From assembly GCA_043819795.1 (NCBI GenBank), contig JBDREN010000153.1, forward strand, positions 1 to 26,439: 26,439 nucleotides of DNA. Reading direction: 5' to 3'. Origin of the DNA: Elusimicrobiota bacterium (GTDB taxonomy: Bacteria; Elusimicrobiota; Elusimicrobia; UBA1565). The translations under genes were made by a program, and so were the position numbers. Every line of letters begins with the position of its first letter. Within the stretch, counting starts at the first letter, position 1. Under the pieces are notes generated by a model. It ran no database searches, was not told where the DNA came from, and was given only the letters and a program-made list of their open reading frames with translations. Shown piece by piece: positions 1 to 24,489 of this stretch.

Positions 1-205
1 CCGCCTGCCCCGCCAGGATCCCGATCTCGCGGTCCACGCCCGACAGGATCTGGCGCTTCGCCGCCATGTAGTTGGAGACGGCCAGCACCACGACCATCCC
101 CAGCGCCACGGGGATGATGCTGTAGACGATCTTCCTCGCCAGCGAGATGGTGCCGGCGGGCTTCAGCGCGGCCCTCTTCGAGTCTCTCCCGCCCGTCCTT
201 TTCAT
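1..205 (-). CDS. N-terminus of a membrane-anchored sensor-like protein (histidine kinase, MCP or cyclase type); runs off the window
   Basis: Not in the ORF track. ATG at 205 overlaps the upstream TGA (ATGA). It translates as MKRTGGRDSKRAALKPAGTISLARKIVYSIIPVALGMVVVLAVSNYMAAKRQILSGVDREIGILAGQA, i.e. an SLARKI motif, TM1 and an amphipathic helix, typical of periplasmic-sensor proteins. The output domain is not visible. Confidence 0.6.
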   Translation of the reverse strand, partial: MKRTGGRDSKRAALKPAGTISLARKIVYSIIPVALGMVVVLAVSNYMAAKRQILSGVDREIGILAGQA

Positions 206-651
206 TCAGCCACCGTCGTTCTCAGGAGGATCAACACGAACACAACGAGATACGATCCCGACAAGAAGGTGAAAAGCGCCGTCAGGCCGTAGTGGCTCAG
301 CCGGGCCAGCCAGCCTTCAGGCCATATGCGGGCGTACAGCAATACCTGGATGGCACACCGGTAGGCCCAGAAAAGGCCGAGGAAACACACCAGAGAAAGG
401 CCCAGCCTGCCGCCCTGGACGATCTCGTCCGAGGCCACCACGACGACCACGCCCAGGCCCAGGACCGTCAACACGATGGCCCCGCCTATCACCTGGAATA
501 TCCTGCGGTTGATGAGCCTCAACTTCGAAAAGTCCTTTTCCCAATCCAACATCCGGGGGGCGAAAAAGAGAGCGGGGACCTGGCAGAAGTGAAGCAGTCC
601 GGTGAACATGACCAGGTTCCTGAGGGTCAGCAGGTCCTGAATCGTGGTCAT
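202..651 (-). CDS. Hypothetical integral membrane protein (~4 TM, 149 aa)
   Basis: Four hydrophobic segments; ATGA overlaps at both ends; GAGGGG SD upstream. Confidence 0.85.
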   Translation of the reverse strand: MTTIQDLLTLRNLVMFTGLLHFCQVPALFFAPRMLDWEKDFSKLRLINRRIFQVIGGAIVLTVLGLGVVVVVASDEIVQGGRLGLSLVCFLGLFWAYRCAIQVLLYARIWPEGWLARLSHYGLTALFTFLSGSYLVVFVLILLRTTVAE

Positions 652-2186
652 TTCCCCTCCCCGGGTCCGCCCCCCGCCCGGCTCCGCGGGGCCGCCCCCT
701 CTTGCCGGAAAGCGGCCTCCATGAAATAGGGCATGCCGGTAACATAGGGGGTATACTCCAGGTTTTTCCGCAAGCCGTAGGTCCGAATCCGCTGATAGGT
801 GAACAGGCTCAATACGTTCTCGTGGACATACCGGTCCAGTTCCCTCGCCTTGCGCGCATGCTCATCGGGGTCCAGCGTCGTCATCATGGCCTCGAAGCGC
901 TTGTCGTAGTCGGGGTCCTTCATCAGCGAGTACGGAGAGCCTGAGTACAAAAGAATGCTTTGAATAAAAAACGAATGGGCCATCGGATCGGGAATTCCCC
1001 CGATCGCAAGGTCCCATTCCCCGGTCCGCAATTCTGGCAGTATCTCTCTGTCCGATCCGGCTCGAATCTTCAGGACGACCCCGATGTCCTGAAGCTGCTT
1101 CGCGATGATGCGGGCGGTCCTCTCGGCTTGGAGCAGGACCAAAGCCTTCAGTTTGAGCGGGACGACGACGCCGGCATCATTCAAGAGCCTCCGGGCTTCC
1201 CCAGGGGCGTAAGGGTATTGGACCAGACGCGGGTCATGGCCGGTCTCTCCAGGCACAGACATGCTGGCGAGAGGGAGACCGTTGCCGAGAAGATCGTATC
1301 GGATCAGATCCTTCTTGTTCATGCCAAGGTTCAGAGCCAAGCGTACTCGTCGATCGGAAAGCGGCGGCCGGCTCGTGTTGAAAGTGGCGCCGACGGTATA
1401 ATACGTCTTCTGCTTCAAGACCCGGGTCCCGGGATCCTTGGCTACACGTAACGTCGCCGTGCCTGGTAATTCGGTCACCAAGCCCACCACGCCGTCCAAC
1501 AACGCCTGAATCTGGCGTTCGCGAGGAACGAAGCGGAAGCGAACCTCCGAGACAAGCGGGTAACCCTCCCGCCAATAGTCCGGATTCCGCCGGAGGACGA
1601 TCTCCTTGTCATTGTCCCACGATTCGAACCGGAAGGCCCCCGTACCGACCGGAGCCCGGCGAAGGCTTTCGATCCCCTCTTTCTCGCAATGGCGCGGCGG
1701 GATCATAACGATGAACCCGCCCAGGCGGTTGAGGAGCAGCCCGTCCGGCATCCTGGTCTTGAGGTCTACCGTCAGGTCGTCGACCACGACGGCCCGCTCG
1801 ATCGTACTGACATACCCCAGGGCAGGAAAGCCGCTCTTCGGATCCAAATAGCGGTCGATGGTGTAGCGCACGCTCTCCGCGTTGAACGTCTCTCCGTTGT
1901 GGAAACGTACGCCAGCCCGAAGCTTGAAGCGCACCGTCAAAGGGTCGATGCGCTTCCATTCGGTGGCCAGCGCCGGGATGATCCGCCCCTCCGGATCGAA
2001 CCGCACCAACCCGTCGAAGATCTGCTGGACGAGAGTGTGGTTTTTCTCGGAAAATTCTTCCAAGGGGCTGAGGGTCAACGGCTCCTTGACGTCATCGCAC
2101 ACCACCAGCGCGTCCCGCGTGTTGGGCCAGGCCGGACCGATCAGGAGGAAGAACGCGACAACGCTCGCTGACGTTCTCCTTATCAA
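648..2186 (-). CDS. ABC-type solute-binding protein, family 5 (DppA/OppA/NikA-like)
   Basis: Motifs IFDGLVRFD..IIPALATEW, LRAGVRFHNGETFNAESV, PVGTGAFRF, NPDYW, DRRVRLALN. The start is re-called to TTG 2186 (TTGA overlap with the upstream stop, GGGAGG SD), followed by a signal-peptide-like segment. Confidence 0.9.
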   Translation of the reverse strand: MIRRTSASVVAFFLLIGPAWPNTRDALVVCDDVKEPLTLSPLEEFSEKNHTLVQQIFDGLVRFDPEGRIIPALATEWKRIDPLTVRFKLRAGVRFHNGETFNAESVRYTIDRYLDPKSGFPALGYVSTIERAVVVDDLTVDLKTRMPDGLLLNRLGGFIVMIPPRHCEKEGIESLRRAPVGTGAFRFESWDNDKEIVLRRNPDYWREGYPLVSEVRFRFVPRERQIQALLDGVVGLVTELPGTATLRVAKDPGTRVLKQKTYYTVGATFNTSRPPLSDRRVRLALNLGMNKKDLIRYDLLGNGLPLASMSVPGETGHDPRLVQYPYAPGEARRLLNDAGVVVPLKLKALVLLQAERTARIIAKQLQDIGVVLKIRAGSDREILPELRTGEWDLAIGGIPDPMAHSFFIQSILLYSGSPYSLMKDPDYDKRFEAMMTTLDPDEHARKARELDRYVHENVLSLFTYQRIRTYGLRKNLEYTPYVTGMPYFMEAAFRQEGAAPRSRAGGGPGEGK

Positions 2187-3241
2187 CGTTTCCTCCCGAC
2201 CAACAGCATCGTCGCGTTCGGCGCTTCCGGACAGATATCCCATTTCCGGATGCCTCCCAGTCCCGCCTGACGCATCCAGTCCTTGTATTCTTTCTCCTTG
2301 TAGACCCGGCCGGCGCGCGTGGATACGAGCATATGCAGAGAGAACAGGGCTGCAAAGCGGGGACGAATCCCGTCACGCTTTAGCATGAAGTCATGTATCG
2401 CGACACAGCCTCCCGGCCGCAGAGCCGCACAAGCCTTCGCCAGCAATCTCCGATTCTCCCTCTCCCCCTCGTCATGGGTAACATGCGAAAGCAAGACAAG
2501 ATCATAGCGGCCCCTGCCGAATGAATCCTTGTGATAGCTCCCGGACCTCAGAGTCACCCGCTTGGCGGCGATCTCCGCGGCGAGAAAACGCCGCGTCAGC
2601 CGCAGGGTTTTGGGCAGGTCCAGGACCGTGGCCCGCATCCCGGGGTGGCGGGCGAGCAGAGCCCGCGTGAACGTCCCCGGGCCCGCGCCCACATCCAGCA
2701 GCCGCTGGGCGCGGCGCAGTGGGATGCGTTCGGCGACGGCTTGCGCGGGCTTCTGCGCGATGTTACTCATGCCACGGATGTAGTCCCGCACGAACGACCC
2801 CCCTGCCCGGGACAACAGCTTGTCGAGAGGCGTCTCGACGCGGCCGCTGCGCAGCACATGCCCCAACCGCCCCCAATTGCCCCACAGCAGGTCCTGGTAC
2901 CTCATATTGTCGCCCAGGTAGTCCGGCTTCCCCTGCACGAGATAGCGCTCGCTGATCGACGAGTTGTGGTAGCCTCTCCCATCCTTGCGCAAGAATCCCG
3001 TCGCCGCGAGGGCATCCAGTAGGACCTCTGTCGGCCGTTTCTTCGTGCCCATCGAACGGCTAATGGCATCCAGCCCATGGCAGCCTGAGGCGACCACATC
3101 GAAACAATTCAGGCTCGCGGCGGCAAAAAGCGCCTTCGCTGCGCGGTACGCCACCACCAATTCGCCGATTGGGCTTCCAGGCGCCTTGCGAAGGATCAGC
3201 CGCGGCTCTTGATCTGGGGGGGGGCTGTTCCGGTCTGTCAC
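2183..3241 (-). CDS. SAM-dependent methyltransferase, O-methyltransferase family 2 (dimerisation + Methyltransf_2)
   Basis: N-terminal wHTH dimerisation region (LLDALAATGFL..YHNS), SAM motif LLDVGAGPG, VLDLP, LLSHVTHD; GTGA overlap with the upstream gene. Confidence 0.9.
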   Translation of the reverse strand: MTDRNSPPPDQEPRLILRKAPGSPIGELVVAYRAAKALFAAASLNCFDVVASGCHGLDAISRSMGTKKRPTEVLLDALAATGFLRKDGRGYHNSSISERYLVQGKPDYLGDNMRYQDLLWGNWGRLGHVLRSGRVETPLDKLLSRAGGSFVRDYIRGMSNIAQKPAQAVAERIPLRRAQRLLDVGAGPGTFTRALLARHPGMRATVLDLPKTLRLTRRFLAAEIAAKRVTLRSGSYHKDSFGRGRYDLVLLSHVTHDEGERENRRLLAKACAALRPGGCVAIHDFMLKRDGIRPRFAALFSLHMLVSTRAGRVYKEKEYKDWMRQAGLGGIRKWDICPEAPNATMLLVGRKR

Positions 3242-4290
3242 GACTTGCGGCCGATCATCATAGAGTAGGGGCCGCCAAGCGATACATGGCGGATGTGCTC
3301 GAACCCGACGTCTCCCATCCAGGTCCGAAGCTCCGCCGCCGAGAAATTCCGTCCTTCGGGAGTCTCGATCATCATGTCAAGGGACATCAGAAGGCCAAAG
3401 GCGCTCGTCCGTCGCTCGTCGTCGATGAGCGCCTCGATGACCAGCAGATGCCCCCCCGACGGCAAGGCGCCAAACGCGCGAGACAAAGCCCGCACCCGGT
3501 TGTCCGGACTTATCCCGTGCAGAAGATGGCCCATCGCATAGACGTCAGCGGGCGGTAAAGCGTCCTTGAGGCAGTCGCCTGCGTGAAACCGCACCTTTTG
3601 CGCCAAACCTTGGCGCGCGATGTATTCCCGGAACACGGGCTCGACCGGCGGGAGGTCCAGATTGACGCACTCGACATGCGGGTGCGCCCGCTGCACGGTG
3701 GCGCAGAGGGTGCCGGGGCCGCCTCCCAGATCACAGAACCGTTTGACGGCCCGGAAGTCGAAAGAACGAGCCACAGCCATCGAGGAGCCCGCAGATAGCC
3801 CGATCATCGCTTTGAGGAAGACATCCCGCTTCGTCGGCTGCGCATAGATGACGTCCAGAATCCACCCGCCCCCTTCCCGCGTTTCGTTCTGGGGAAGGCC
3901 GGTCCGGAGAGCCTCCTCGAAACGCCCCCAGAACTCCCAAAGGCGGTCGTTGGCGTTGAGGAGCATGTCCCCCAGATAGGCCGGGGAGTTGCCGTCCAGG
4001 AAGAAGGCGGACTCCCGGGTGTTAGCGTAGGCGCCGTCTTTCCGCTCGAGAATATTGAGGGCGACCAGCGTGTCCAGGAAGTCGCGAGTACCGCGAGGGT
4101 GCAGGCCGAGCCGGTCCTGTATCTTCTCGGCCTTCATCGACACCGGACCCAAGACGCTGAAGAGATCCAGCTTCACCGCGGCCAGTAAGACCTTGCTCGC
4201 CCAGAATCCCATCCCAATCTGGAGTAGATGCTCCGGACTTAAAGACGGCTCGGCTTTCGGCTTCTCCAGGGTCTCCATGTCAGTGTCCAT
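3238..4290 (-). CDS. SAM-dependent methyltransferase, O-methyltransferase family 2
   Basis: GFWASKVLLAAVKLDLF, RDFLDTLVAL, DLGGGPG, NLDLP, FGLLMSLDMMIET. The start is ATG 4290 or 4278, not the track's 4368, which lies deep in the upstream gene. Confidence 0.92.
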   Translation of the reverse strand: MDTDMETLEKPKAEPSLSPEHLLQIGMGFWASKVLLAAVKLDLFSVLGPVSMKAEKIQDRLGLHPRGTRDFLDTLVALNILERKDGAYANTRESAFFLDGNSPAYLGDMLLNANDRLWEFWGRFEEALRTGLPQNETREGGGWILDVIYAQPTKRDVFLKAMIGLSAGSSMAVARSFDFRAVKRFCDLGGGPGTLCATVQRAHPHVECVNLDLPPVEPVFREYIARQGLAQKVRFHAGDCLKDALPPADVYAMGHLLHGISPDNRVRALSRAFGALPSGGHLLVIEALIDDERRTSAFGLLMSLDMMIETPEGRNFSAAELRTWMGDVGFEHIRHVSLGGPYSMMIGRKS

Positions 4291-6034
4291 CCGATTTGAA
4301 GAATCGCTCCAATGTCTCAAGCCGCATGCCCATGGGCGGCATGGCCTCGCAGTCGATCCGTGCGTCAACGACCGTCGGCCGCCCCGAGTCGATCCCGCGG
4401 CGCACGGCTCTCTCGACTTCGCCGGGTCTGTCGGCGCGGATTGCTAAAGCGCCCATGGCCTCGGCCAGCTTCACCACATCGAGTCGGTGGCGAAAGAGCG
4501 AACTATTGAACTTCCCCTTGAACTGCAGCGTTTCGCCCAGACGGACCATCCCGTGGCCGCCGTTGTTCTGCACCACCCAGACCACGGGGACATCGTTCTC
4601 CACCGCCGTATGGACCTCCATCCCGTTCATCGCGAAAGCGGCGTCGCCCACGAGAGCGGCGACCGGACGGCCGGGAGCCGCCAGCTTGCCCCCGACAGCG
4701 GCTGCCGTTCCATGTCCCATCGACGCGAAGCCCATATTAAGGACAAACGTGCCCGGTCCGCGCGTCAGGTAGTAATGAATCGCCCAGGACATCACGTTGC
4801 CGATGTCCACGAAGAGGATCGCGTCGTCGGGCAGCGCGCGCCGCATCTCCGCCACGACGCGCTGGGGCTTGAGGGGGATCGAGGAGTCCTCCATGGCCCC
4901 GGGATCGATGAACCGCGGATGGCCCCGCTTCAACGCGCGAATGGCCGCGATGCGTTCCGCGCAGTCCGGGACGTCGTCCATCCAGCGCGCATCGCGCTCC
5001 ATCTGGAAGTTGAGCTCAAGGAGGACCTGCCGGGCATCCCCCACCAGGCCGACCTCCACGGGGAAGTTCTTCCCGATCTCGGCGGGATCCACATCGATCT
5101 GCAGCATGCGTTTCCCAGCGATCAGGCGCGCATCCCAAGCGTGGGTGGAGGTTTCGCCGAAGCTCGTGCCGATCACCAGCAGCATGTCGGTTTCGCTGGA
5201 CAGCAGGACGGCGTCCGCCTGCGGAGAGCCCGCGATACCCAGGACGCCGAGCGAAAGGACATGGTCCTCCGGAAACACGCCCTTCGCCCTCGGCGTCGTC
5301 GCCACGGGGATGCCGAGACGCTCGGCCAGGGCGCGCAGCTCGGCGTAGGCGCGCGATAAGTGGACTCCGTAGCCAGCCAAGATGGCCGGCCGGCGCGCCC
5401 GGAGGAGCCCCTTGGCGGCCTCCTTCACGGCGTGCCTGTCGAAATGCTTGCTTTGCGGCCGGAACTGCGCCGGAGCGCTGAGATCGGCCGATACGGATTG
5501 CTTCATCATGTTTGCCGGCAGGCTCAGGTGGACCGGGCCCGGCCGGCCGCTAAGCGCGGTCCGCAGCAAGTGGCGGACCATGTCGGACATCTTCTCCGGA
5601 GACACCAGCATGAGGCTGGCCTTGGTGACGGCCTTGTAGAGGTCCACAATGTCGATGCCCAGGGGGGAGCTCTCCTGAGCCGCGCCTTTTCCGAAAGCGG
5701 AGGTGGCGACCTGGGCGGTCAAGATCAGGATGGGGACCGAGTCGCGCTGGGCGCACGCGATCCCGGTCAGGGCATTCGTGGCCCCTGGGCCCGTCGTGGT
5801 GCAGCAGACGCCCAGGCGCCCGCTGACGCGCGCGTAGCCGTCGGCCATGAACGCGGCGCCTCCCTCGTGCTTGGTCAGTATGGGACGGATCGCACGCCGC
5901 TCGAACATCGCCTCATAGAGCGGCATGAGCGGGCCGCCGGGGATGCCGAAGATGTATTGCGTCCCCTCCGCTTCGATGTATTTGAGTAAAAGCTCGACAG
6001 CAGTCAGCGTCCTCGCCCCAGGCACAGACGGCAT
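4280..6034 (-). CDS. ThDP-dependent enzyme, acetolactate synthase large subunit-like (possible acyloin synthase)
   Basis: IFGIPGG, HEGGAAFMADGYAR (catalytic Glu), TTGPGATN, RPGPVHL, QIDVDPAEIGKN, and ThDP motif GDAAFAM...VVQNN. ATG 6034 has a GAGGAGG SD. Confidence 0.92.
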   Translation of the reverse strand: MPSVPGARTLTAVELLLKYIEAEGTQYIFGIPGGPLMPLYEAMFERRAIRPILTKHEGGAAFMADGYARVSGRLGVCCTTTGPGATNALTGIACAQRDSVPILILTAQVATSAFGKGAAQESSPLGIDIVDLYKAVTKASLMLVSPEKMSDMVRHLLRTALSGRPGPVHLSLPANMMKQSVSADLSAPAQFRPQSKHFDRHAVKEAAKGLLRARRPAILAGYGVHLSRAYAELRALAERLGIPVATTPRAKGVFPEDHVLSLGVLGIAGSPQADAVLLSSETDMLLVIGTSFGETSTHAWDARLIAGKRMLQIDVDPAEIGKNFPVEVGLVGDARQVLLELNFQMERDARWMDDVPDCAERIAAIRALKRGHPRFIDPGAMEDSSIPLKPQRVVAEMRRALPDDAILFVDIGNVMSWAIHYYLTRGPGTFVLNMGFASMGHGTAAAVGGKLAAPGRPVAALVGDAAFAMNGMEVHTAVENDVPVVWVVQNNGGHGMVRLGETLQFKGKFNSSLFRHRLDVVKLAEAMGALAIRADRPGEVERAVRRGIDSGRPTVVDARIDCEAMPPMGMRLETLERFFKSDGH

Positions 6035-6054
6035 GGAGTGACCCTCCTCAGTCG

Positions 6055-6642
6055 CTACTTTACTAGTTCGGCAGAGACTCCCAGCAAGGACAGCACGCGA
6101 CGCGTGAACAGCCTGATGTCGAAAGGCTTGACGTAGAACGCCTCGGTGTGGCGCCGCATGAACTGCAGCTTCGCCGGAGGCAGACGCTTGCCCGTGATCC
6201 CGACCACCTTGATCCCGCGCGTCGCGGGATCCGCCCGCAGCGAAGCCAGCACGCGAGCGCCGTCGACGACCGGCATCACCACGTCCAGGATGATGAGGTC
6301 CGGGGGATCCTTGGCCAGAGCCAGCAGGGCGCCGACCCCGTCCTGCGTCCACTCGACGGCGAACTCGCTCGAGGCCCGCTGCAGGGCCTTCTTGATCATC
6401 CTGCCTACGGCAGGCTCGTCCTCCACGATCAGTATCCGGTTGCTCGGCTCGCGCAGCTCGTCGGAGATCGGGAGCTTGAACTTCTTGAGGAACTCCAAGA
6501 GGTCGCTCTTGCGGATCCGGCGGTGGCCGCCGGGGGTGGCGTAGGCCTCGATCTTGTTCTGCTTGACCCAGCTGATCACCGTGCTGGGATAGACGTCGCA
6601 GAACCGGGCGACTTGAAACGTCGTGTATGTTTTCTCGTTCAT
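6055..6642 (-). CDS. Response regulator with N-terminal excisionase/MerR-like HTH (HTH_17) and C-terminal receiver domain
   Basis: YTTFQVARFCDVYPSTVISW..AYATPGGHRRI is the HTH; RILIVEDE, LIILDVVMP, ITG and KPF are the receiver, with phosphoacceptor Asp, Thr and Lys intact. ATG 6642. Confidence 0.92.
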   Translation of the reverse strand: MNEKTYTTFQVARFCDVYPSTVISWVKQNKIEAYATPGGHRRIRKSDLLEFLKKFKLPISDELREPSNRILIVEDEPAVGRMIKKALQRASSEFAVEWTQDGVGALLALAKDPPDLIILDVVMPVVDGARVLASLRADPATRGIKVVGITGKRLPPAKLQFMRRHTEAFYVKPFDIRLFTRRVLSLLGVSAELVK

Positions 6643-6737
6643 GTCGGCATCCTCAGACAAGCGGCCTCCCAATCCGCCAGTCAAGCGCGAAAAACGGCGA
6701 CGGCGAACCAGGTAAGCGGATATTGATAGCTACTAGA

Positions 6738-6767
6738 AGTCTAACCCACTAAGCTTGACTTGTCAAG
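6738..6767 (-). promoter_or_regulatory. Sigma70 promoter TTGACA-N17-TAGACT with palindrome CTTGAC-TT-GTCAAG over the -35
   Basis: -35 at 6766-6761, -10 at 6743-6738, 17-nt spacer; palindrome at 6754-6767; AT-rich island. Confidence 0.8.
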
Positions 6768-7748: not shown

Positions 7749-8678
7749 CTACGCCCCCGTGACGGGCGACCCGACCGGGGCCTCCGGCCCGGCCGGGCCG
7801 GAGGACATCCCCATGGACCGCATGAACTCGCTTTGACTCTTCTCAGCGGCCTTGTTCAGGTCAGCCACGCCCTTGACGGCGATGGTTCCCACCACGGTCC
7901 TCAGAGGTCTACGACCGGCCGGCGTCTCGATCAACTCCTTGACGGCGTCGGCCACCTCCCGCGGATCGGGCGCACCGGGCCCGGACAGCCTTGCCTCCAG
8001 CTCCGCAAACACTTGCCGGGGGGCCTCGGCCATCGGACCGTATCCCGCCAGCCTCTCCTTTCCGGCCGGCGCCTCGGCCTTTCGCTCGAAACCCGTCAGA
8101 TACGCGCCGGGCTCGACGATGGCCGATTCGATACCGAAGGAGGCGAGCTCGTAGCGCAGCGTCTCGGCGATGGATTCCGATGCGGCTTTCGCCGCGTTGT
8201 AGGAGCCTATAAAGGGGGAGCAAACGCGCGCCGCGGTGCTCGAGATATAGATGAGCAGGCCGGACCTGCGCTCCCTCATGTACGGGAGCACCGCGCGATT
8301 GACTCGAAGGGCTCCGAATACGTTGGCGTCGAACAACCGCCGCACCTGCTCGATCGAGAAAGCCTCCAAAAGGCCTATGGCGAGCACTCCCGCGTTGTTC
8401 ACCACCACGTCGATGCCTCCGGCGGAAGCGACGATCGCCTTGACCGCCGCTTCGACGGAAGCCTCGTCTCGCACATCCAGCTCCAATACCTCGATAGCAA
8501 CGCCCTCGCGCCGGCCCCATTCGCGCGATTCGCGAGCGGCCTTCGCATTCTTGCCGTCCACGCCCCTCATGGTCGCGAAGACTCTGTGCCCGGCCTTGGC
8601 GAGCGTCTGGGCGATCATCTTCCCGAAACCGCTGCTGGCGCCCGTAATTAGCACGTTTAGCCTTGTTGTGTTAGCCAT
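7749..8678 (-). CDS. Short-chain dehydrogenase/reductase (classical SDR)
   Basis: TGASSGFG, LDV, VVNNAG, ISS, YNAAK, VEPG. Confidence 0.93.
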   Translation of the reverse strand: MANTTRLNVLITGASSGFGKMIAQTLAKAGHRVFATMRGVDGKNAKAARESREWGRREGVAIEVLELDVRDEASVEAAVKAIVASAGGIDVVVNNAGVLAIGLLEAFSIEQVRRLFDANVFGALRVNRAVLPYMRERRSGLLIYISSTAARVCSPFIGSYNAAKAASESIAETLRYELASFGIESAIVEPGAYLTGFERKAEAPAGKERLAGYGPMAEAPRQVFAELEARLSGPGAPDPREVADAVKELIETPAGRRPLRTVVGTIAVKGVADLNKAAEKSQSEFMRSMGMSSGPAGPEAPVGSPVTGA

Positions 8679-8701: not shown

Positions 8702-8730
8702 ATGCTAACTTTTTTCAGGCCAAAAGTCAC
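8702..8730 (-). promoter_or_regulatory. Possible sigma70 promoter GTGACT-N17-TAGCAT for the SDR-channel pair
   Basis: -35 at 8730-8725, -10 at 8707-8702, A-rich 17-nt spacer. Confidence 0.45.
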
Positions 8731-9578
8731 GGGGCGCGCAAAAGCCGGCCCCGCAGCGCGGAGATGAGCTTCCTCCGGAAGGCGTCCTCCAGACGGCCCT
8801 TGAGAACCTCTCGGATGGGACGCGTGCGCTCCAGCCAGGCGGGATAGTCCTCCACCTCCATCTCGAAGCCCTCGATGTAGGCGTGGGAGCCTTCTTCCTC
8901 CACCCGCCAGCCCCGGTCCTCGTCCGGCACGATCCGCACGTGGCAGAACAGGCGCACGCTCTCGATAGCTACCGTCCGGTTGTAAGGCCAAACGAACCTT
9001 CCCAGCAGCCTCCCCCCCATGCGGAAGCCGCGCAGGGACAGGACGAACGAGCGCCCTCCGTCGCCCGATACGACGAAGTCGATCTCCGGGTCGTCCCAGG
9101 AGACATGTTCGATGAAGAGCTTCCCCTTCAGGAAGAATCCCAGCCGCGCCCGCTCGAGCACGAGCGGCACCCCGATGAGCGGCCCCGCGGTGGCCGGGTC
9201 CGCGTAGAGGGCTGCCAGCTCGCTCAGGGGAAAGGCCGGAGGCGTGCCCTTGGTGAAGCCCTTGACCGCCAAAAGCCTCGCGCCGAAGCTCGCCTCGTAG
9301 CGAAGGTCCTTTCGCCGGAAGGACAACCGGTAGTCGCGGGGGAGATCCGGCAGGTCCGAGAGGCGGCGGACCTCGCGTCCCGTCACCGCCAGCAGCCTGT
9401 CCCCGGCGGAGACCCCCGCGTCGGCGGCCGGCGAGCGGGGCTCCACGCGCGTCACGGCCAGCCCCCCGTCCCGCTCGGCCAGCTCCAGCCCGGGTCCCCA
9501 CTGCGCCTCGGTCCGGACGGCCGCGAGCGCGAGAGCCCCGGCCAGCAGGCAGGCGATGAATCTGGAATCTCCCGTCAT
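8727..9578 (-). CDS. Secreted PDZ-domain protein with uncharacterised C-terminal domain
   Basis: Signal peptide FIACLLAGALALAAVRTEA, then GLELAERDGGLAVTRVEPRSPAADAGVSAGDRLLAV (PDZ signature). Start taken at ATG 9578. Confidence 0.75.
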   Translation of the reverse strand: MTGDSRFIACLLAGALALAAVRTEAQWGPGLELAERDGGLAVTRVEPRSPAADAGVSAGDRLLAVTGREVRRLSDLPDLPRDYRLSFRRKDLRYEASFGARLLAVKGFTKGTPPAFPLSELAALYADPATAGPLIGVPLVLERARLGFFLKGKLFIEHVSWDDPEIDFVVSGDGGRSFVLSLRGFRMGGRLLGRFVWPYNRTVAIESVRLFCHVRIVPDEDRGWRVEEEGSHAYIEGFEMEVEDYPAWLERTRPIREVLKGRLEDAFRRKLISALRGRLLRAP

Positions 9579-10091
9579 CAAGATGGAAATCGGTCGGTGG
9601 ATCGCCGCATGCTGCTGATCGCCGCGTCGGCGACATGCCGCATCCGACAATCATAGTAATATTCGGCTCCGGGCACGCAGGCACGGGCGGGCATACGCGC
9701 CGCCCGCGCGGACTATTCCCCGGCACCCGGCCAACAGTCCGGCCGGACGCGCGCACGATTCCCCGAGGCCCGGCCAAGACGAGCCGGCTAGGCCGCTTCT
9801 TTGGCCCCTCCCCCGCGCGGGGGGTGGTGCCGGACTTTAGACTCCCGCGTGGAGAGTGAAAAATACAGTATTCTAAACGGGAATTTTTTTAAAAACTCCG
9901 GGGCCAGTGAAGCAGATGCTCGGGTGACGCCGGAACGCGACAAAACCGAGCCCGCGAGCCCAAGCCCCACAAGAATGCCTCCGGGATCGCGCCCGAGATC
10001 CGGCAAGCGCCAAATGCGGCGGCAGGGCCCGCCCTAGGCATCGCCCCGAGCGAAGTCGACGGGCCCCGTCGAGCGGGAACGCGCGGGGGTC

Positions 10092-10138
10092 TTGACAGGA
10101 GCGTATCAGTGTGCTATCCTATTATCACATTATCACAC
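10092..10138 (+). promoter_or_regulatory. his operon promoter TTGACA-N17-TATCCT with overlapping operator-like repeats
   Basis: -35 at 10092-10097, -10 at 10115-10120; TTATCACA tandem at 10122-10129 and 10130-10137; inverted near-copy TGTGCTA at 10110-10116. Confidence 0.8.
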
Positions 10139-10142
10139 TCCC

Positions 10143-10427
10143 ATGGAACCGCCCCAAGAGAAGAAGCTTTACGAGGCCCTCCTGAGCCTCCGCGACGCCT
10201 CCGCGTGCGAGCGCTTCCTCGCCGACCTGTGCACCCCCGGCGAGATCCACGCGATGGCGGAGCGGTGGCTCGTGGCCAAGCTCGTGGACAAGGGCATCCC
10301 TTATCGGAAGATCCACGAGAAGACGGGAGTCAGCACGGCGACGATCACCCGGGTGGCGCGGGCCCTCGTCCACGGCCGCGCGGGCTACCGGCTGGTGCTC
10401 GACCGGATGAAGGAGAAGCGGATATGA
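10143..10427 (+). CDS. yerC: YerC/YecD family TrpR-related repressor (putative HisR)
   Basis: LYEALLSL..CERFLADLCTPGEIHAMAERW.VAKL..GIPYRKIHEKTGVSTATITRVAR. The true start is ATG 10143; the track's TTG 10092 is the -35 box. Confidence 0.92.
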   Translation: MEPPQEKKLYEALLSLRDASACERFLADLCTPGEIHAMAERWLVAKLVDKGIPYRKIHEKTGVSTATITRVARALVHGRAGYRLVLDRMKEKRI

Positions 10428-11320
10428 CCCGGAGAAAACGGATCCGGATGGCGATGCAGAAGAACGGGCGGCTCAGCGAGAAGTCCACCTCCCTGCTCGG
10501 ACGCTGCGGCCTGGAGTTCGGCTGGAGCAAGGACCGCCTGTTCAGCAAGTGCGAGAACTTTCCCCTCGACCTGACTTTGGTGCGCGACGACGACATCCCG
10601 GAGTACGTCTGCGACGGGGTCTGCGAGCTCGGAGTGGTGGGGCTCAACGTCCTCAAGGAGAAGCTGCTCGCCAGGGGCGCGGACAAGCCCGGACGCGCGC
10701 GCGTCCTCAGGAGGCTCGGCTTCGGCCACTGCCGGCTCTCGTTGGCCGTGCCGGCCGACCGTCCCTACAGGGGCGTGAGAAGCCTCAAGGGGACGCGGAT
10801 CGCGACCTCCTATCCGGCGACCCTCCGCGAGTTCCTGAGAAAGAGCAAGGTCGAGGCGGACATCGTCGAGATCAGCGGGTCGGTCGAGATCGCCACGACC
10901 CTGGACATCGCCGACTGCGTCTGCGACCTGGTCTCGACGGGCACGACGCTGCGCTCCAACGGCCTCAAGGAGGTGGAGACCGTATTCGAGAGCGAGTGCG
11001 TCCTGGCCCGGACCGGACTGCCGCTGAGCGCCGGGCAGGAGCGGACCGCGGCCCGCCTGCTGCAGCGCATCGACGGCGTGATGCGGGCCGCCGATGCCAA
11101 ATACATCATGCTCAACGCGCCCGCCGACGCCCTCTCCTCCCTTAAGAAGGTCCTCCCGGGGATGGAGGAGCCCACGATCATCCCGCTAGGCGGCGACGGC
11201 AAGAGGGTCGCGGTCCACGCGGTGGCCTATGAGCCCGTGTTCTGGGAGACGATGGAGAGGCTGAAGGCCGCGGGCGCGAGCTCGATCCTCGTGGTGCCGA
11301 TCGAGAAGATCATCGCATAG
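10424..11320 (+). CDS. hisG: ATP phosphoribosyltransferase, long form
   Basis: AMQKNGRL, VRDDDIP, IATSYP, GSVEIA, DLVSTGTTL; C-terminal regulatory domain ending GASSILVVPIEK. Confidence 0.98.
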   Translation: MTRRKRIRMAMQKNGRLSEKSTSLLGRCGLEFGWSKDRLFSKCENFPLDLTLVRDDDIPEYVCDGVCELGVVGLNVLKEKLLARGADKPGRARVLRRLGFGHCRLSLAVPADRPYRGVRSLKGTRIATSYPATLREFLRKSKVEADIVEISGSVEIATTLDIADCVCDLVSTGTTLRSNGLKEVETVFESECVLARTGLPLSAGQERTAARLLQRIDGVMRAADAKYIMLNAPADALSSLKKVLPGMEEPTIIPLGGDGKRVAVHAVAYEPVFWETMERLKAAGASSILVVPIEKIIA

Positions 11321-11322
11321 CC

Positions 11323-12636
11323 ATGTTCGCCTCGAGACCCGTCCGTTGGAGCGAGCTCACAGACGAGCGGAAGCGGGCCCTGCTGCGCCGCCCTTCGCTG
11401 CGCAGCCGCCCCGGCCTGGCGGCCCGGGTGGGGCGGATCATGGGCCAGGTCCGGGAAGGCGGCGACCGCGCGCTCAAGCGCCTGACCAAGCGCTACGATC
11501 GCGTCTCGCTGGAGTCGTTCGCCGTGGAGCCCGGCGAGATCGAGCGGGCCCCCTCCCGGCTCCCGGCCGAGGATCGGACCGCCCTGGAAAGGGCCGCCCG
11601 GCAGATCGAAGCTTTCCATCTTCGGCAGGTTCCCGTCCCCATCGACCTGGAGGTCTGCCCCGGGGTCCGCTGCATGAGGCAGCCGCGGGCCGTCGCCCGG
11701 GTCGGGCTCTACGCCCCGGGCGGGACCGCGCCGCTTCCCTCCACCGTCCTGATGCTCGGAGTGCCGTCGAAGATCGCGGGCTGTCCGCTCAGGATACTCT
11801 GCACCCCCCCCGGCAAGAACGGGACGGCGGACCCGTCCATCCTGGCGGCCGCCCGGCTCTGCGGCATCGAGCGCGTGTTCACGGTCGGCGGGGCCCAAGC
11901 GGTCGCGGCCATGGCATACGGCACGGAGTCGGTCCCGAAGGTGGACAAAATATTCGGTCCCGGCAACGCCTGGGTCACGCAGGCCAAGATCCTGGCCGCC
12001 CAGGACCCCGAGGGAGCGGCCTGCGACATGCCGGCCGGGCCCTCGGAGGTGCTGGTGCTGGCCGACGCCGCGGCGGACGCCTCGTTCGTCGCCTCCGATC
12101 TGCTCTCCCAGGCCGAGCACGGGGGCGATTCCCAGGTAGTCCTGGTCGCCACGGACCCCGGCCTTCTGAAGAGAGTCGTGAAGGAGACCGAGCGGCAGCT
12201 CAAGTCCCTGCCGAGGAAGGCCGCCGCCGGCGAGGCCCTGCGCCGAAGCCTCCTCATTCTGGCCGAGGACGCCGATGAGGCGCTGGATATCTCCAACATG
12301 TACGCCCCCGAGCACCTCATCGTGCAGATGAAGGACCCCGGAGCGCTCGTGCCCGGCATCCGGAACGCCGGCTCCGTGTTCCTCGGCCCGTGGTCGCCCG
12401 AGTCCGCGGGGGACTACGCGAGCGGCACGAACCACGTGCTGCCCACCTACGGCTACGCGCGCGCCTACGGGGGCGTCGCGGTGGAATCCTTCATGAAACA
12501 GATCACCTTCCAGGAGCTCTCCGCCGAGGGGCTGATGGACATCGGGCCGACCGTGGAGAGGCTCGCGGCCCTGGAGGGCCTTGGCGCCCACAAGAAGGCG
12601 GTATCCATCCGCCTCAAGGCGCTCCGGAGGAGATGA
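11323..12636 (+). CDS. hisD: Histidinol dehydrogenase
   Basis: GLYAPGG.APLPSTVLM, GGAQAVAA, KIFGPGN, DMPAGPSE, SQAEH, PEHL, GDYASGTNHVLPT. Confidence 0.98.
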   Translation: MFASRPVRWSELTDERKRALLRRPSLRSRPGLAARVGRIMGQVREGGDRALKRLTKRYDRVSLESFAVEPGEIERAPSRLPAEDRTALERAARQIEAFHLRQVPVPIDLEVCPGVRCMRQPRAVARVGLYAPGGTAPLPSTVLMLGVPSKIAGCPLRILCTPPGKNGTADPSILAAARLCGIERVFTVGGAQAVAAMAYGTESVPKVDKIFGPGNAWVTQAKILAAQDPEGAACDMPAGPSEVLVLADAAADASFVASDLLSQAEHGGDSQVVLVATDPGLLKRVVKETERQLKSLPRKAAAGEALRRSLLILAEDADEALDISNMYAPEHLIVQMKDPGALVPGIRNAGSVFLGPWSPESAGDYASGTNHVLPTYGYARAYGGVAVESFMKQITFQELSAEGLMDIGPTVERLAALEGLGAHKKAVSIRLKALRRR

Positions 12637-13709
12637 TGAAGGCTCCGCTCTCCCTCGCCCGCAAGGACGTCCTCGAGCTCACGCCGTACTCCTCGGCGCG
12701 CAGCCTGAACCTGGAGGCGGACATCCTCCTGGACGCCAACGAATGCCCTTGGCCGCCCTGTCCGGGAGACGACCGGGCCTTGGGCCTGAACCGGTATCCC
12801 GACCCGCAGCCGAGGGCCCTGCTTTCCGCCCTGAGCGCGCTCTACGGGGTGCCGGAGGAAAGCCTGTTCCTCGGGCGCGGCACCGACGACGCCATCGACG
12901 CCTTGGTCCGCACGTTCTGCCAGGCGGGAGAGAACGACATCCTCGTCTGCCCGCCGACCTACGGGGTCTACGGCGTCGCGGCCCGGATCCAGGGCGCCGG
13001 CGTGCGCGCGGTCCCTCTGACGAAAGAGCCGGCCTTCCAGCCGGACGTCCCGGCCATACTCCGGGCCTGGGACCCCAGGCTGAGGCTGGTATTCTTCTGC
13101 TCCCCGAACAACCCGACGGGCAACGCGATGGACGCGGATTCCGTCGTCGAGGTCTGCGAGGCCTTCCGCGAGAAAGCGGTGGTCGTCCTGGACGAGGCCT
13201 ACGCGGAGTTCTCATCCAAGCCGAGCCTCATCACGCGCCTCGAGGGGCTGCCCAACCTGGTGATCCTGCGCACGCTGTCGAAAGCATGGGCCCTGGCCGG
13301 AGCGCGCTGCGGCGCGGCGCTCGGCGACCCGCGGATCATGGGGCTGCTCCACAAGGTACGCGCGCCCTACCCGCTGAGCCTGCCGTCCGTGCGGGCCGCG
13401 CTTCGCGCCCTGTCGCCGCAGGGCAAGCGCCTGTGCAGCGGCCGGGTCAAAAGGCTGAGGTCCGAAAGGGAGCGCCTGGCCGGGGCCCTGTCGGCCCTGC
13501 CGGGCGTCGAGAAGGTGTATCCTTCGGACGCCAACTTCCTCCTGGCTAGGGTGAAGGACGCCGGAGAGGTTTTCGAGCGCTGCAAGTCACATGGGATCCT
13601 CGTGCGGGACCGCGGCTCCGAGCCCGGCCTGTCGCGCTGCGTGCGGATCACCGTGGGACGGCCGGAGGAGAACGACCGTCTGCTGGACGCCTTGGAGCGG
13701 GAGGACTGA
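12633..13709 (+). CDS. hisC: Histidinol-phosphate aminotransferase
   Basis: YSSAR, LDANE, NRYPDPQ, CSPNNPTG, DEAY, LRTLSKAWALAGAR.G (PLP Lys). Confidence 0.97.
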   Translation: MMKAPLSLARKDVLELTPYSSARSLNLEADILLDANECPWPPCPGDDRALGLNRYPDPQPRALLSALSALYGVPEESLFLGRGTDDAIDALVRTFCQAGENDILVCPPTYGVYGVAARIQGAGVRAVPLTKEPAFQPDVPAILRAWDPRLRLVFFCSPNNPTGNAMDADSVVEVCEAFREKAVVVLDEAYAEFSSKPSLITRLEGLPNLVILRTLSKAWALAGARCGAALGDPRIMGLLHKVRAPYPLSLPSVRAALRALSPQGKRLCSGRVKRLRSERERLAGALSALPGVEKVYPSDANFLLARVKDAGEVFERCKSHGILVRDRGSEPGLSRCVRITVGRPEENDRLLDALERED

Positions 13710-13713
13710 TCCG

Positions 13714-14787
13714 ATGGGACTTCAGAAGATACTCTTCCTTGACCGCGACGGCACCTTGATCCGCGAGCCCGCCGACGAGCAGGTGGACAGCCTGGAGAAG
13801 CTGGAGCTCGTGGACGGCGTCATCGGCGCGCTCCTCAAGCTGCGCGACCACGGCTACCGCTTCGTCATGGTCAGCAACCAGGACGGCCTGGGCACCTCGC
13901 ACTACCCGCGGGAGGACTACGAGAAGGTGCAGGCGGCCGTGCTGCGGTTGTTCGGATCGCAGGGGATCCGCTTCGACGCGGTCCACATCTGCCCGCACCG
14001 GCCGCAAGACGGCTGTCCCTGCCGCAAGCCGAACCTGGGCATGGTACGCGACTATATCGGCCGCGGGGACCTGGACATCGGACGCTCCTGCGTCATCGGC
14101 GACCGCGACACGGACCTCGAGATGGCGAAGAACATGGGCCTGCGCGGGTTCCGCCTCGGCGCGGGCGAGGATTCCGGATGGGAAGCCGTCGCCGCGCGGC
14201 TGATCGCCGAGCCGCGCACGGGCCACGCCGAGCGGAGCACCAAGGAGACGAGGATCTCGGTCGCCGTGGACCTGGACGGGCCGGGCGGCTGCGACATCTC
14301 AACCGGCATCGGCTTCTTCGACCACATGCTCGAGCAGCTCTCCAAGCACGGAGGTTTCGCTCTCGCCCTCCGGGCCGAGGGAGACCTCCGAGTGGACGAG
14401 CACCATACCGTCGAGGACGCCGCCCTCTGCATCGGGGAGGCGCTCAAGCAAGCCCTCGGCGACAAGACGGGCATCGGGCGCTACGGCTTCCTGCTTCCCA
14501 TGGACGAGGCGGAGGCCCAGGTCTCGATCGATCTCTCGGGACGGGGCTCGCTCTCGTTCAAGGGGTCATTCCCCCGGGAGCGCGTCGGGGAGCTCCCCAC
14601 CGAGCTCGTCCCCCATTTCTTCGGCTCCCTGGCGCACGCGATGGGAGCCACCATGCACATCAAGGTGGAGGGAGAAAACGCCCACCACATGGTGGAGGCT
14701 TGCTTCAAAGGCGTGGCTCGCGCCCTGCGGACGGCGCTCGCCCGCTCCGAGGGCGCGGATATCCCGTCCACGAAAGGGACCCTGTGA
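13714..14787 (+). CDS. hisB: Bifunctional histidinol-phosphatase / imidazoleglycerol-phosphate dehydratase (HisNB)
   Basis: HAD domain FLDRDGTL, SNQDGLG, CPH..C.CRKP, IGDR.TD, fused to IGPD TGIGFFDHML, DEHHTVED, PMDE, NAHH, PSTKG. Confidence 0.98.
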   Translation: MGLQKILFLDRDGTLIREPADEQVDSLEKLELVDGVIGALLKLRDHGYRFVMVSNQDGLGTSHYPREDYEKVQAAVLRLFGSQGIRFDAVHICPHRPQDGCPCRKPNLGMVRDYIGRGDLDIGRSCVIGDRDTDLEMAKNMGLRGFRLGAGEDSGWEAVAARLIAEPRTGHAERSTKETRISVAVDLDGPGGCDISTGIGFFDHMLEQLSKHGGFALALRAEGDLRVDEHHTVEDAALCIGEALKQALGDKTGIGRYGFLLPMDEAEAQVSIDLSGRGSLSFKGSFPRERVGELPTELVPHFFGSLAHAMGATMHIKVEGENAHHMVEACFKGVARALRTALARSEGADIPSTKGTL

Positions 14788-15371
14788 TCGCGATCATCGA
14801 CGCGGGAGGCGCCAACTTCGCCTCCATCACCAACGCCCTCGAGCGCCTGGGCACGCCGGGGCGGCTGACGAAGGACCCCGAGGTCATCGGCCGAGCGGAC
14901 CACGTGATCCTTCCCGGGGTGGGCGCCGCCGCGGACTCGATGCGGCGGCTGCGCGAGACGGGCCTCGTGGAGGTCATCCGCCGCCTGCAGCGCCCCTTGC
15001 TCGGGATCTGCCTGGGCATGCAGCTGTTGTTCGCCCGCTCGGAGGAGGGCGAAACGCACTGCCTCGGCGTCCTGCCCGGATGCGTGCGCCGCATGGAGGG
15101 CGGCCCCGGCCTGTCCATCCCGCATATGGGATGGAACCGCGTCCGCCGCACCGGGTCCAGCTTCCTCCTGAGCGGCGTCCCCGACGAGAGCCACTTCTAT
15201 TTCGCGCACTCCTACCAGGCACCCGAAGGCCCCTGGGTGCGCGGCACGGCCCGGCACGGCCGCGCCTTCCCGGCGGTCGTGGAGAGCGGCAACTTCTTCG
15301 GGGTGCAGTTCCATCCCGAACGCTCCGCCGACGCCGGGGCCACGATCCTGCGGACCTTCCTGACCCTATGA
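14784..15371 (+). CDS. hisH: Imidazole glycerol phosphate synthase, glutaminase subunit
   Basis: ILPGVG, GICLGMQ, PHMGWN, YFAHSY, QFHPE; GTGA overlap. Confidence 0.97.
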
Positions 15372-16096
15372 AGATCTACCCGGCCATCGACCTCATCGCA
15401 GGAGGATGCGTGCGCCTCAGCCAGGGGCGCTTCGACCGCAAGACCTCCTACGCCGCCGATCCCGTGGAGGTCGCCAAGGGCTACGCCGCGCAGGGAGCGC
15501 GCTATCTCCACGTGGTGGACCTCGAGGGCAGCCGTTCGGGAGAGGGCCGGCAGACCGACACGATCTTTCGCATCGTCCGAGAGAGCGGGCTCAAAGCGCA
15601 GGTGGGAGGAGGCGTCCGGAGCCCGGAAGCCGCGGAGCGGTACCTGGCGGCCGGCATAGACAGGGTGATCTTCGGAAGCCTCGCCGTCAAAGACGAGGAC
15701 GCCGTGAAGCAAGCCCTGCGGAGCTTCGGCCCGGAGCGCGTCACCCTGGCCGTGGACGTGAGGATCCAGGAGGGCGGGACGCCGCTCGTCGCCGTCTCGG
15801 GCTGGGAGGAGCCGGCCGCGCTTTCCGCCTGGGAGCTCATCGAACGATTCCGCGACGCCGGGCTCAATCACGTCCTATGCACCGACATCGAGCGCGACGG
15901 CACCGGGAGAGGCCCCAACGTCCCCCTCTATCTGGAGATGGCGCGCCGGTATCCGGAGCTGGAGGTCCAGGCCTCCGGCGGCGTGGGCTCCCTGGACGAT
16001 CTGCGCGAACTCAAGCGCTCGGCGATCCCCTCGGTCATCATAGGGAAGGCCCTGCTCGACGGGCGCTTCACGCTGGAGGAGGCCCTCCGATGCTGA
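15368..16096 (+). CDS. hisA: ProFAR isomerase
   Basis: [40 protein letters not shown]. Confidence 0.97.
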
Positions 16097-16857
16097 CCAA
16101 GCGCATCATCCCGTGCCTGGACGTACGCGACGGGGTCGTGGTCAAGGGCGTGCGCTTCAAGGACCACCGGGTCGTGGGCGACATCCTCGAGCTGGCGAGG
16201 CACTACCGCGAGGCCGGCGCCGACGAGCTGGTCTTCTACGACATCACGGCCAGCAGCGAGGGGCGGACCGTCTCCCAGGATTGGGTGAGGGAGACCGCCA
16301 GGCTCCTGGATATCCCCTTCTGCGTGGCGGGAGGCATCCGGACCCGGGAGGACGCCCGCCGGACGCTGAACGTGGGCGCCGACAAGATCTCGATCAACTC
16401 CCCCGCCCTGGAGCGGCCCGAGCTGATCACCGAGATCGCCGAGGACTTCGGGTCCCAGTGCGTGGTGGTGGGAGTGGACTCCAAGCGCGAGGGCGGGGAC
16501 TATTTCGTCCGCCAGTACACGGGCTCCGAGAAGACGATCCGGTCCGCCGGCCGCAGGACGCTCGATTGGGTCGTGGAGGCCGAGGAGCGCGGCGCGGGAG
16601 AAATCGTCCTCAACTGCATGGACATGGACGGGGTGGGCAAGGGCTACGACATCGAGCAGCTCCAGGCCGTCCGGGAAAGGATCGGCATCCCGCTGATCGC
16701 CTCCGGCGGGGCCGGCGAGGCCCGGCATTTCGCGGACGTCTTCAAGCGGACGGGGGTGGACGGCGCCCTCGCGGCCGGGGTCTTCCACCGAGGAGAGCTG
16801 GCTATCGCCGACCTCAAGCGCGTCCTAAAAGAAGCGGAGGTCGAGGTGCGGATATGA
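16090..16857 (+). CDS. hisF: Imidazole glycerol phosphate synthase, cyclase subunit
   Basis: [48 protein letters not shown]. Confidence 0.98.
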
Positions 16858-24178: not shown

Positions 24179-24224
24179 CGTGACCTCTTCTTGTTCTCTT
24201 AGATTCGGGTTCCGCGGGACAAGG

Positions 24225-24283
24225 CTAAATCCGCGGGATTTAGATCTTCTCCAAAATATAGCCCAAACTCGGTCGGAAGTCAA
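24225..24283 (-). promoter_or_regulatory. Promoter TTGACT-N17-TATATT of the large surface protein, followed by a perfect 8-bp inverted repeat
   Basis: -35 at 24283-24278, -10 at 24260-24255; CTAAATCC-N3-GGATTTAG at 24225-24243. Confidence 0.72.
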
Positions 24284-24480: not shown

Positions 24481-24489
24481 TGCTACAAT
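24481..24489 (+). promoter_or_regulatory. Extended -10 promoter TGcTACAAT for a probably leaderless small ORF
   Basis: TGn-TACAAT with 7 nt to ATG 24497; no SD. Confidence 0.6.

Follow-up and report, generated by a model that had tools for sequence, protein, structure and literature searches.

Is a set of genes in which an enzyme that depends on thiamine diphosphate (ThDP) stands between a response regulator and a periplasmic receptor a circuit that makes and senses its own signal? The question is raised by the left end of the window, by which we mean the whole stretch of 26,439 nucleotides analysed here. With this stretch begins contig C153 of an Elusimicrobiota genome (G000; 4.99 Mb, 90% complete). 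As the original prediction had it, seven co-oriented open reading frames (ORFs) are found there, all on the minus strand. They encode a regulator, the ThDP enzyme, two methyltransferases (MT1 and MT2), a family-5 periplasmic substrate-binding protein (SBP), a small membrane protein and a hybrid histidine kinase. With a probability of roughly 0.6, we read this operon as a self-signalling, quorum-sensing-like circuit, in which a self-made acyloin-type signal is tailored and then bound by the SBP, the kinase reads it, and the regulator closes the feedback loop.

In the proposed circuit the ThDP enzyme, a carboligase, would condense two 2-oxo acids, probably at least one of them bulky or aromatic, to an alpha-hydroxy-beta-keto acid able to decarboxylate to an acyloin, as homology and the pocket residues suggest. 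Strain-variable enzymes, namely the two methyltransferases here and elsewhere a cupin, a class I methyltransferase, a B12 radical S-adenosylmethionine (SAM) methyltransferase, a short-chain dehydrogenase/reductase (SDR) or a halogenase, would tailor it into lineage-specific versions. The signal would leave the cell and re-enter the periplasm, partly via a COG4313 channel, there to be bound by the SBP. The SBP would pass the signal on by way of a conserved helical patch of the dCache domain of the kinase, with which it docks in a model. Judging from synteny, the hybrid kinase would phosphorylate the regulator, which carries an HTH_17 and a receiver (REC) domain. Control of the operon would follow from binding of the regulator to 9-bp direct repeats that cover the transcription start, both the binding and the sign of control being putative. 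We infer that the product of the enzyme is the ligand of the SBP and that the response depends on cell density.

The four 4-bp stop/start overlaps that had been read from the sequence are all present (GTGA 3241-3238, TTGA 2186-2183, ATGA 651-648 and ATGA 205-202). The genes for the ThDP enzyme and MT1 had been said to overlap or abut; the overlap fell away, as the junction reads TGA-C-ATG with a 1-nt gap. The ThDP gene starts with ATG at 6034, behind AGGAGG and 20 nt past the regulator stop, and the start of the SBP gene is a TTG preceded by GGGAGG. The sensor gene runs off the window. One end of contig C210 is identical to the first 141 bases of the window, a stretch that occurs on no other contig, and completes the sensor ORF (L001:1813-4845) to 1,032 residues, of which only 68 codons had been available before. 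It had been asked whether the gene at 1-205 encodes a signalling protein; the completed gene on C210 encodes a hybrid sensor kinase, and its stop is followed by an 11-bp hairpin and TATTT. The Pfam families of the other genes are HTH_17 and Response_reg, TPP_enzyme N, M and C, Methyltransf_2 with Dimerisation (twice) and SBP_bac_5. The features are collected in Table 1.

Table 1. Features of the operon and its upstream neighbour in the window (aa, amino acids; TM, transmembrane segment)
Feature	Position	Strand	Basis
Phenol_MetA_deg (COG4313/SphA-type) outer-membrane channel, 301 aa	6783..7688	-	Pfam PF13557, E 2e-47
Sigma-70-type promoter TTGACA-17-TAGACT	6738..6766	-	10/12 consensus match
Place of the orthologues' 9-bp direct-repeat array (predicted operator), unrecognisable in G000	6700..6737	-	Lag-9 score 0.22 in window
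Response regulator, 195 aa, N-terminal HTH_17 (BldC-like winged helix) and C-terminal receiver	6055..6642	-	Pfam
ThDP-dependent carboligase, BbmA/CsmA/CybE type, 584 aa, predicted signal synthase	4280..6034	-	Pfam, PDB homology
MT1, family-2 SAM methyltransferase, 346 aa, rare accessory gene	3238..4278	-	Pfam; RedM match
MT2, family-2 SAM methyltransferase, 352 aa, commoner accessory type	2183..3241	-	Pfam
Family-5 periplasmic binding protein (SBP), 512 aa, permease-less, predicted ligand receptor	648..2186	-	Pfam, complex model
Four-helix membrane protein, 149 aa, accessory	202..651	-	Hydropathy; no Pfam/NCBIfam match
Hybrid histidine kinase, 5' end (TM-dCache-TM-HAMP-GAF-PAS-HisKA-HATPase-REC)	1..205	-	Contig overlap with C210, Pfam

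The original prediction was also staked on the gene order being conserved in other genomes, and a regulator-ThDP-SBP-kinase unit indeed recurs across Elusimicrobiota. Among titled homologues of the ThDP enzyme, the closest (at most 76% identical) all come from metagenome-assembled genomes of this phylum. Among 40 relatives, 19 carry a full or near-full orthologue (48-72%) and 2 more a fragment at a contig end; a phylum-wide draw gave 11/150, with 0/45 and 0/44 in two large families. Loci selected by the ThDP enzyme form a set of 48 distinct Elusimicrobiota loci. Of the 41 loci that extend 3.5 kb or more downstream, 40 have the SBP gene within 9 kb of the ThDP gene; the kinase gene lies within this distance in 33 of the 35 that extend 6.5 kb or more. 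Selection in reverse, by the SBP, found an orthologue in 38 of 120 genomes of the class, and the ThDP gene adjoins it in all 35 that could be evaluated. For seventeen of the 38 this neighbour had been established beforehand (16 by locus, G037 by coordinates); 20 of the other 21 were examined, 18 having the ThDP gene beside the SBP gene and 2 being cut by a contig edge. A metagenome scan returned four loci, all consistent with the operon, a plasmid search only two distant Streptomyces matches, and a search of sequencing runs listed no RNA run and a single DNA run, in which a 0.22 share of the words was present. The operon core is regulator-ThDP-SBP-kinase.

Some loci depart from the common layout. 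In L132 (G199:C6) two SBP copies flank the channel gene in one operon. A shorter kinase of about 720-800 aa, with a two-piece match to the kinase of G000 and without most of the middle GAF/PAS region, is encoded in L015, L022, L028, L031, L042, L046 and others. One lineage (L028, L122, L124) has a gene for a trypsin-like protease of about 830 aa after the cupin gene, inside or behind the operon.

Databases label the ThDP enzyme acetolactate synthase, which would make it a housekeeping acetohydroxyacid synthase (AHAS). This role was rejected on a score below the cut-off, the loss of AHAS residues and the ilv genes not found. Against the model of the biosynthetic enzyme (IlvB/I/G) the protein reaches 421 bits vs a cut-off of 538, and it stays below the cut-off of all 25 best NCBIfam models listed. 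The AHAS motifs FDDR, MHG and GMVxxW, whose Arg, Met and Trp we take to be the specificity residues, read FGET, IAG and GMVRLG in the alignment, and across 60 orthologues the Arg is kept in none, the Met in 3 and the Trp in none. The genes ilvC, ilvD and ilvN (small subunit) were not found in the 90% complete G000, with controls positive in 13-14/14, and only 3 of 21 carriers of the ThDP enzyme have ilvC.

In agreement with a different role, the best relatives in the PDB are, in this order, BbmA (623 bits, E 3.7e-186), CsmA (291 bits, 1e-85) and, with 255 bits, E. coli AHAS I. Residue G500 corresponds to BbmA G484, which is mutated in PDB 8XOD. Together with the catalytic residues E57, Q120 and D464 it is invariant among the 60 orthologues wherever the residue is present, and the pocket positions 119, 174, 267, 295, 411 and 413 vary. 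An invariant catalytic set and a variable pocket would fit one chemistry with varied substrates. According to an excerpt of PMC12395478, where BbmA is spelled 'BpmA', CsmA and its partner are homologues of CybE that make alpha-hydroxy-beta-keto acids, and CybE condenses ketoisovalerate with 4-hydroxyphenylpyruvate. By closest homology and the shared enlarged-pocket Gly (BbmA 484) the enzyme belongs with the BbmA/CsmA/CybE-type synthases, and it is predicted to be a carboligase of this type and the signal synthase. A non-ilv, acyloin-type role had been proposed for it from the start, and is supported by the BbmA homology, the loss of AHAS residues and the absence of hits to ilv genes.

On the receptor side, no ATP-binding cassette (ABC) permease was recognised with Pfam among 50 scanned of the 73 unassigned same-strand ORFs in the loci, and there is none on C153 or C210; of the five other family-5 SBPs of G000, four adjoin one. 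The SBP scores below the NikA, DppA and OppA cut-offs. A Dpp/Opp/Nik ABC importer was rejected, as permease and ATPase genes are not found by the SBP gene and the cut-offs for importer SBPs are missed. The fold is uninformative for the class of ligand: the SBP is 18-24% identical to any solved SBP, and its equally distant matches span peptide, opine, nickel and sugar binders.

The N-terminal part of the kinase was modelled with a predicted local distance difference test score (pLDDT) of 91 and matches dCache sensors such as KinD and DctB. Within its periplasmic part, conservation is highest in a helical segment (residues about 56-90); the distal pocket region varies, and one member has lost most of it. 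The complex of SBP and dCache domain scored 0.75/0.71/0.75 vs 0.00 for the best of three controls, by a mark that is reached by 116/157 solved and 2/215 mismatched pairs and is roughly applicable to the 33-row alignments used here. The runs share at least 94% of contacts, with a partner pLDDT of at least 91. The modelled interface is formed by kinase residues 72-87 and SBP residues 221, 271-275 and 334-341, and includes the invariant D72, L81 and E84 of the kinase and R274 of the SBP (the SBP docking residues R274/Y275, R334 and I338 are in the numbering of alignment A1). On the kinase side the interface is enriched in conserved positions (p 0.0006). The SBP is predicted to dock on the dCache domain of the neighbouring kinase.

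Variation among genomes bears on the same patch. In one case, G158 (99% complete, 3 contigs), the ThDP enzyme and the kinase are kept, there is no SBP orthologue, and the kinase has the changes D72E, Y76A, Y79A and L81D. In this genome the kinase gene directly follows the ThDP gene, upstream of riboflavin genes (L113, G158:C1:2148000-2167500). Five genomes in which the kinase is encoded away from the SBP have one kinase orthologue each, with the docking motif intact. In two Rokubacteria and one other non-Elusimicrobiota genome the SBPs are about 30% identical, and the RY of the SBP and the D/Y/L/E of the kinase are kept; the other family-5 SBPs of G000 are without RY. A sensing logic like that of LuxP/LuxQ had been suggested for the operon, and gains support because no permease was found and the complex model passes. 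A dedicated receptor linked to its synthase, as quorum sensing has it, is thus at hand in the permease-less SBP and the dCache hybrid kinase, which are co-conserved and dock in the model.

At the output end, the receiver's phospho-acceptor residues D75, D120 and K172 and the winged-helix core of the regulator are conserved in 51 sequences. It matches the HTH_BldC model with E 1.4e-9 and 37.6 bits (cut-off 77), and its gene stays directly before the kinase gene when the operon is rearranged (L093, L118, L129, L138, L147). The promoter in the window had been called strong, and does match the consensus at 10 of 12 positions; taken alone, such a match does not go beyond chance (2 found vs 1.2 expected). 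Across loci, a TTG-16/18-TAnnnT promoter is present in 41 of the 44 in which the regulator gene directly precedes the ThDP gene (window included), and shuffles gave a mean of 1.5 and a maximum of 5. In these 41 loci a period of 9 bases marks the 36 bases from the -10 box (lag-9 match 0.49 vs 0.30, z 14.8). The remaining lags between 4 and 14 stay at or below z 1.4, and the control region upstream reaches z 2.2. BldC, a stand-alone protein of 68 residues, lines up head to tail on direct repeats that have a 9-bp period, the unit in the structure being CAATTCGGA (PMC5859096, excerpt).

Between these parts lie genes that come and go. Over 43 long-flank loci, the ThDP- and the SBP-selected ones pooled, we counted a cupin in 26, a family-2 methyltransferase in 21, the COG4313 channel (at most 9 kb from the ThDP gene) in 12 and the 149-aa membrane protein in 7; rarer are a class I methyltransferase (4), a B12 radical SAM enzyme (3) and an SDR (2). 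One locus has a flavin halogenase and a TonB receptor. Because the accessory slot varies around a constant core, the two methyltransferases are the version of a swappable cassette that G000 carries. They had been listed, with the 149-aa protein, among the parts of the system; all three are present, the methyltransferases being accessory rather than essential and the membrane protein likewise an accessory and not a conserved member. The latter has no Pfam or NCBIfam match, and its Atlas clusters are all hypothetical.

Two or more family-2 methyltransferases occur in only 2 other loci, and a homologue more than 45% identical to MT1 in 2 of 60. The closest solved relative of MT1 is RedM (E 2.9e-83), the N-dimethyltransferase of an indolocarbazole (PMC10784701, excerpt); no close solved relative of MT2 was found. 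The assignment to family 2 holds, and the O-methylation once attributed to both enzymes is not established, the nearest relative of MT1 being an N-methyltransferase. An aromatic or indolic substrate is plausible. A third family-2 methyltransferase, 29-34% identical to MT1 and MT2, is encoded elsewhere in the genome (L002:5743-6738, G000:C166). The G+C content at third codon positions of MT1, MT2, SBP and channel is 0.76-0.78, below that of the regulator (0.89) and the kinase (0.92), a weak hint of cassette exchange. MarH and MarI are a pair of enzymes that form beta-methyl-arylpyruvate. A similar role for the cupin and methyltransferase of other loci was considered and gained no support, as the cupin matched only quercetin dioxygenase-like (weakly, E 2e-9) or unnamed cupins and the class I methyltransferase only unnamed methyltransferases.

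The channel gene, which the original prediction did not include, lies upstream of the operon promoter in the window, has the same upstream position in L119, and stands inside the operon in other genomes. It likely belongs to the operon set, and the channel would likely be a passage for the hydrophobic signal.

Outside the phylum, a unit of ThDP enzyme, SBP and dCache kinase is found in two Rokubacteria and one other genome (L049, L054, L055), with no regulator in the locus. In a mainly myxobacterial clade of the ThDP enzyme, a different, non-dCache kinase adjoins in 20 of 28 rows. It has about 560 aa, and one of the two scanned gave a weak V4R match. Most rows of this clade carry two genes that are citryl-CoA-lyase-like and have no Pfam match. 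One synthase clade paired with two unrelated receptor designs would be the behaviour of synthase-receptor pairs. The tree of ThDP enzymes (FastTree) leaves the deep forks open and gives no order of events. In Nannocystaceae, type VI secretion genes often lie next to the myxobacterial sister operon (L050, L058, L063, L064, L079, L100 and others). In L051, L052, L061, L067, L094 and L105 the ThDP homologues lie near a ketoacyl synthase III (KAS III) gene, and these are candidate furanolide-type clusters.

Several observations weigh against a self-signalling circuit. No exporter was recognisable. COG4313 channels are implicated in uptake (PMC4493636, excerpt), and an external ligand therefore fits too. 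Conservation of the interface is not significant on the SBP side (p 0.07), and the complex model was fed the same alignments, so that conservation is not independent of it. The promoter in the window is without the 9-bp repeat (0.22, below the null). In five genomes of family f6 the regulator gene, promoter and repeats are missing upstream of the ThDP gene, a search for a close orthologue of the regulator came up empty (best E 1e-28, 33-36%), and the kinase gene lies elsewhere in four of the five. As G000 has four other HTH_17-like genes, the pairing of kinase and regulator rests on synteny. The genomes are kin and their counts overstate independence, and for the same reason the synteny counts describe conservation, not probabilities. 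Finally, there is little correlation between the distance matrices of ThDP enzyme, SBP, kinase and regulator (Spearman 0.12-0.29, n=38).

This weak mirror-tree correlation and the split arrangements in family f6 and in G164 could mean that there are two separate modules, the ThDP enzyme with its tailoring genes and the SBP with kinase and regulator, co-transcribed by history. In the splits, however, the ThDP gene stays with the SBP gene, and not the SBP gene with the kinase gene (L114, L115, L117, L135, L137). Rokubacteria have the trio as well, and in myxobacteria the enzyme is linked to a kinase independently. Together with the housekeeping AHAS, we regard this explanation as very improbable.

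Another possibility is that the operon responds to an aromatic or hydrophobic compound from outside, be its source prey, neighbours or the environment. The channel, the SBP and the kinase would detect this compound, and the ThDP enzyme and the methyltransferases, induced in response, would cleave, modify or detoxify it. A COG4313 channel or a TonB receptor in the operon and the likeness of the cupin to quercetin dioxygenase would suit such a task, and ThDP enzymes are often reversible. CBP-ChiS is moreover a pair of family-5 SBP and dCache-like kinase for an external ligand (PMC8050422, excerpt). The scanned ORFs, however, include neither an inner-membrane importer nor a catabolic dehydrogenase, CoA-ligase or ring-cleavage set, the accessory genes encode building enzymes (methyltransferases, B12 radical SAM enzyme, halogenase), and the closest characterised relatives of the ThDP enzyme are synthases. 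A response to external compounds is thus unlikely.

The product may instead be mainly a weapon or effector, acyloin- or furanolide-like, which the SBP and kinase sense, or whose precursor they sense, only to tune its synthesis, with no population signalling and no wider regulon. CybE-type enzymes feed bioactive furanolides (PMC12395478, excerpt), and KAS III genes stand near some of the homologues outside Elusimicrobiota. The Elusimicrobiota loci, on the other hand, showed no gene for a KAS III or furanolide synthase, a CoA ligase, an exporter or resistance, and there is a minimal form of ThDP enzyme, SBP and kinase without a tailoring gene (e.g. L096; L055 in Rokubacteria). We consider an effector without signalling distinctly unlikely. 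CybF of the furanolide pathway is KAS III-like. A furanolide cluster of the cyb type was rejected for the Elusimicrobiota, with no KAS III on any Elusimicrobiota row or among the scanned ORFs.

The remainder of the window contains genes of other kinds. SDR and PDZ-domain genes (7749-8678 and 8727-9650) are co-oriented upstream of the channel gene, an adjacency that is not kept in relatives. An ordinary histidine biosynthesis operon follows on the plus strand (10109-17468; hisG, hisD, hisB, a HisA/F-family gene and hisIE by Pfam). A 1,571-aa protein with Ig/cadherin/PKD repeats, likely a surface adhesin, is encoded at 19826-24541. Near the contig end, in a stretch of lower GC, a DUF4143 ORF overlaps the frame of a fragmentary group II intron maturase (GIIM) at 24745-25785; the two may come from a mobile element that has decayed.

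Bacteria are known to build their own signals by few chemistries, and in the literature searched a ThDP carboligase is not among them. The operon is a complete, compact candidate for such a case, bringing together synthase, receptor and kinase with regulator and operator in about 10 kb, from a phylum known mostly from metagenomes. It suggests a natural role for BbmA-type enzymes, which are otherwise studied as biocatalysts, and the complex model names the docking patch by which a family-5 SBP may have been re-purposed as a pure receptor. More tentatively, and at somewhat less than even odds, the BbmA-clade ThDP carboligases may be a new class of autoinducer synthase in Elusimicrobiota, Rokubacteria and, with another receptor, myxobacteria. 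They would turn 2-oxo acids into acyloin-type signals, with a swappable tailoring cassette, a family-5 SBP on a dCache kinase and a BldC-like response regulator.

Parts of this arrangement are known from other systems. In LuxP/LuxQ, which senses autoinducer 2 (AI-2), and in CBP/ChiS of Vibrio, a hybrid kinase has a dCache-like domain on which an SBP docks, as it does here in the model. LuxP belongs to Peripla_BP_4 and LuxQ has a LuxQ-periplasm domain, whereas SBP_bac_5 and dCache_1 are found here, with no LuxQ among the listed fold matches; LuxS, the synthase for the LuxP/LuxQ signal, is encoded elsewhere. In the alpha-hydroxyketone quorum-sensing systems CqsA/CqsS and LqsA/LqsS a synthase stands beside a histidine-kinase receptor, and an acyloin too is an alpha-hydroxyketone; CqsA and LqsA are pyridoxal phosphate (PLP) enzymes that act on acyl-CoA, and their receptors have six helices and no SBP. 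CBP is an SBP_bac_5 protein like the SBP of the operon (PMC8050422, excerpt). Unlike the permease-less SBP, CBP also serves a transporter, and it binds chitin oligomers.

With the synthases BbmA, CsmA and CybE (PDB 8X3X, 8XOD, 8X3Z) the ThDP enzyme has the Gly of BbmA 484 and the loss of the AHAS Arg and Trp in common. Unlike in the furanolide pathway of CybE, the enzyme is linked to a receptor in the Elusimicrobiota loci, where neither a CybF-type furanolide synthase nor a CoA ligase or an ammonia lyase was seen. The BldC family has the HTH_17 domain, and its binding to 9-bp head-to-tail repeats fits the repeats found here (PMC5859096, excerpt). In contrast to the stand-alone BldC, the regulator is fused to a receiver and remains below the HTH_BldC cut-off; it may still work like BldC.

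The literature searched, which left most subscription journals outside, held no description of this operon or of a ThDP autoinducer synthase. ScrABC of V. parahaemolyticus, which acts with the S-signal, likewise has synthase, SBP and dCache-like receptor in one operon. ScrA is PLP aminotransferase-like, ScrB belongs to SBP_bac_3 and ScrC is a GGDEF-EAL protein, in place of which a ThDP carboligase, an SBP_bac_5 protein and a HisKA/HATPase/REC kinase are found here. Unlike in ScrABC, an HTH_17-REC regulator and a variable tailoring cassette are encoded together with them. On our best reading, by analogy, the layout of the operon would be that of ScrABC and its chemistry would be new.

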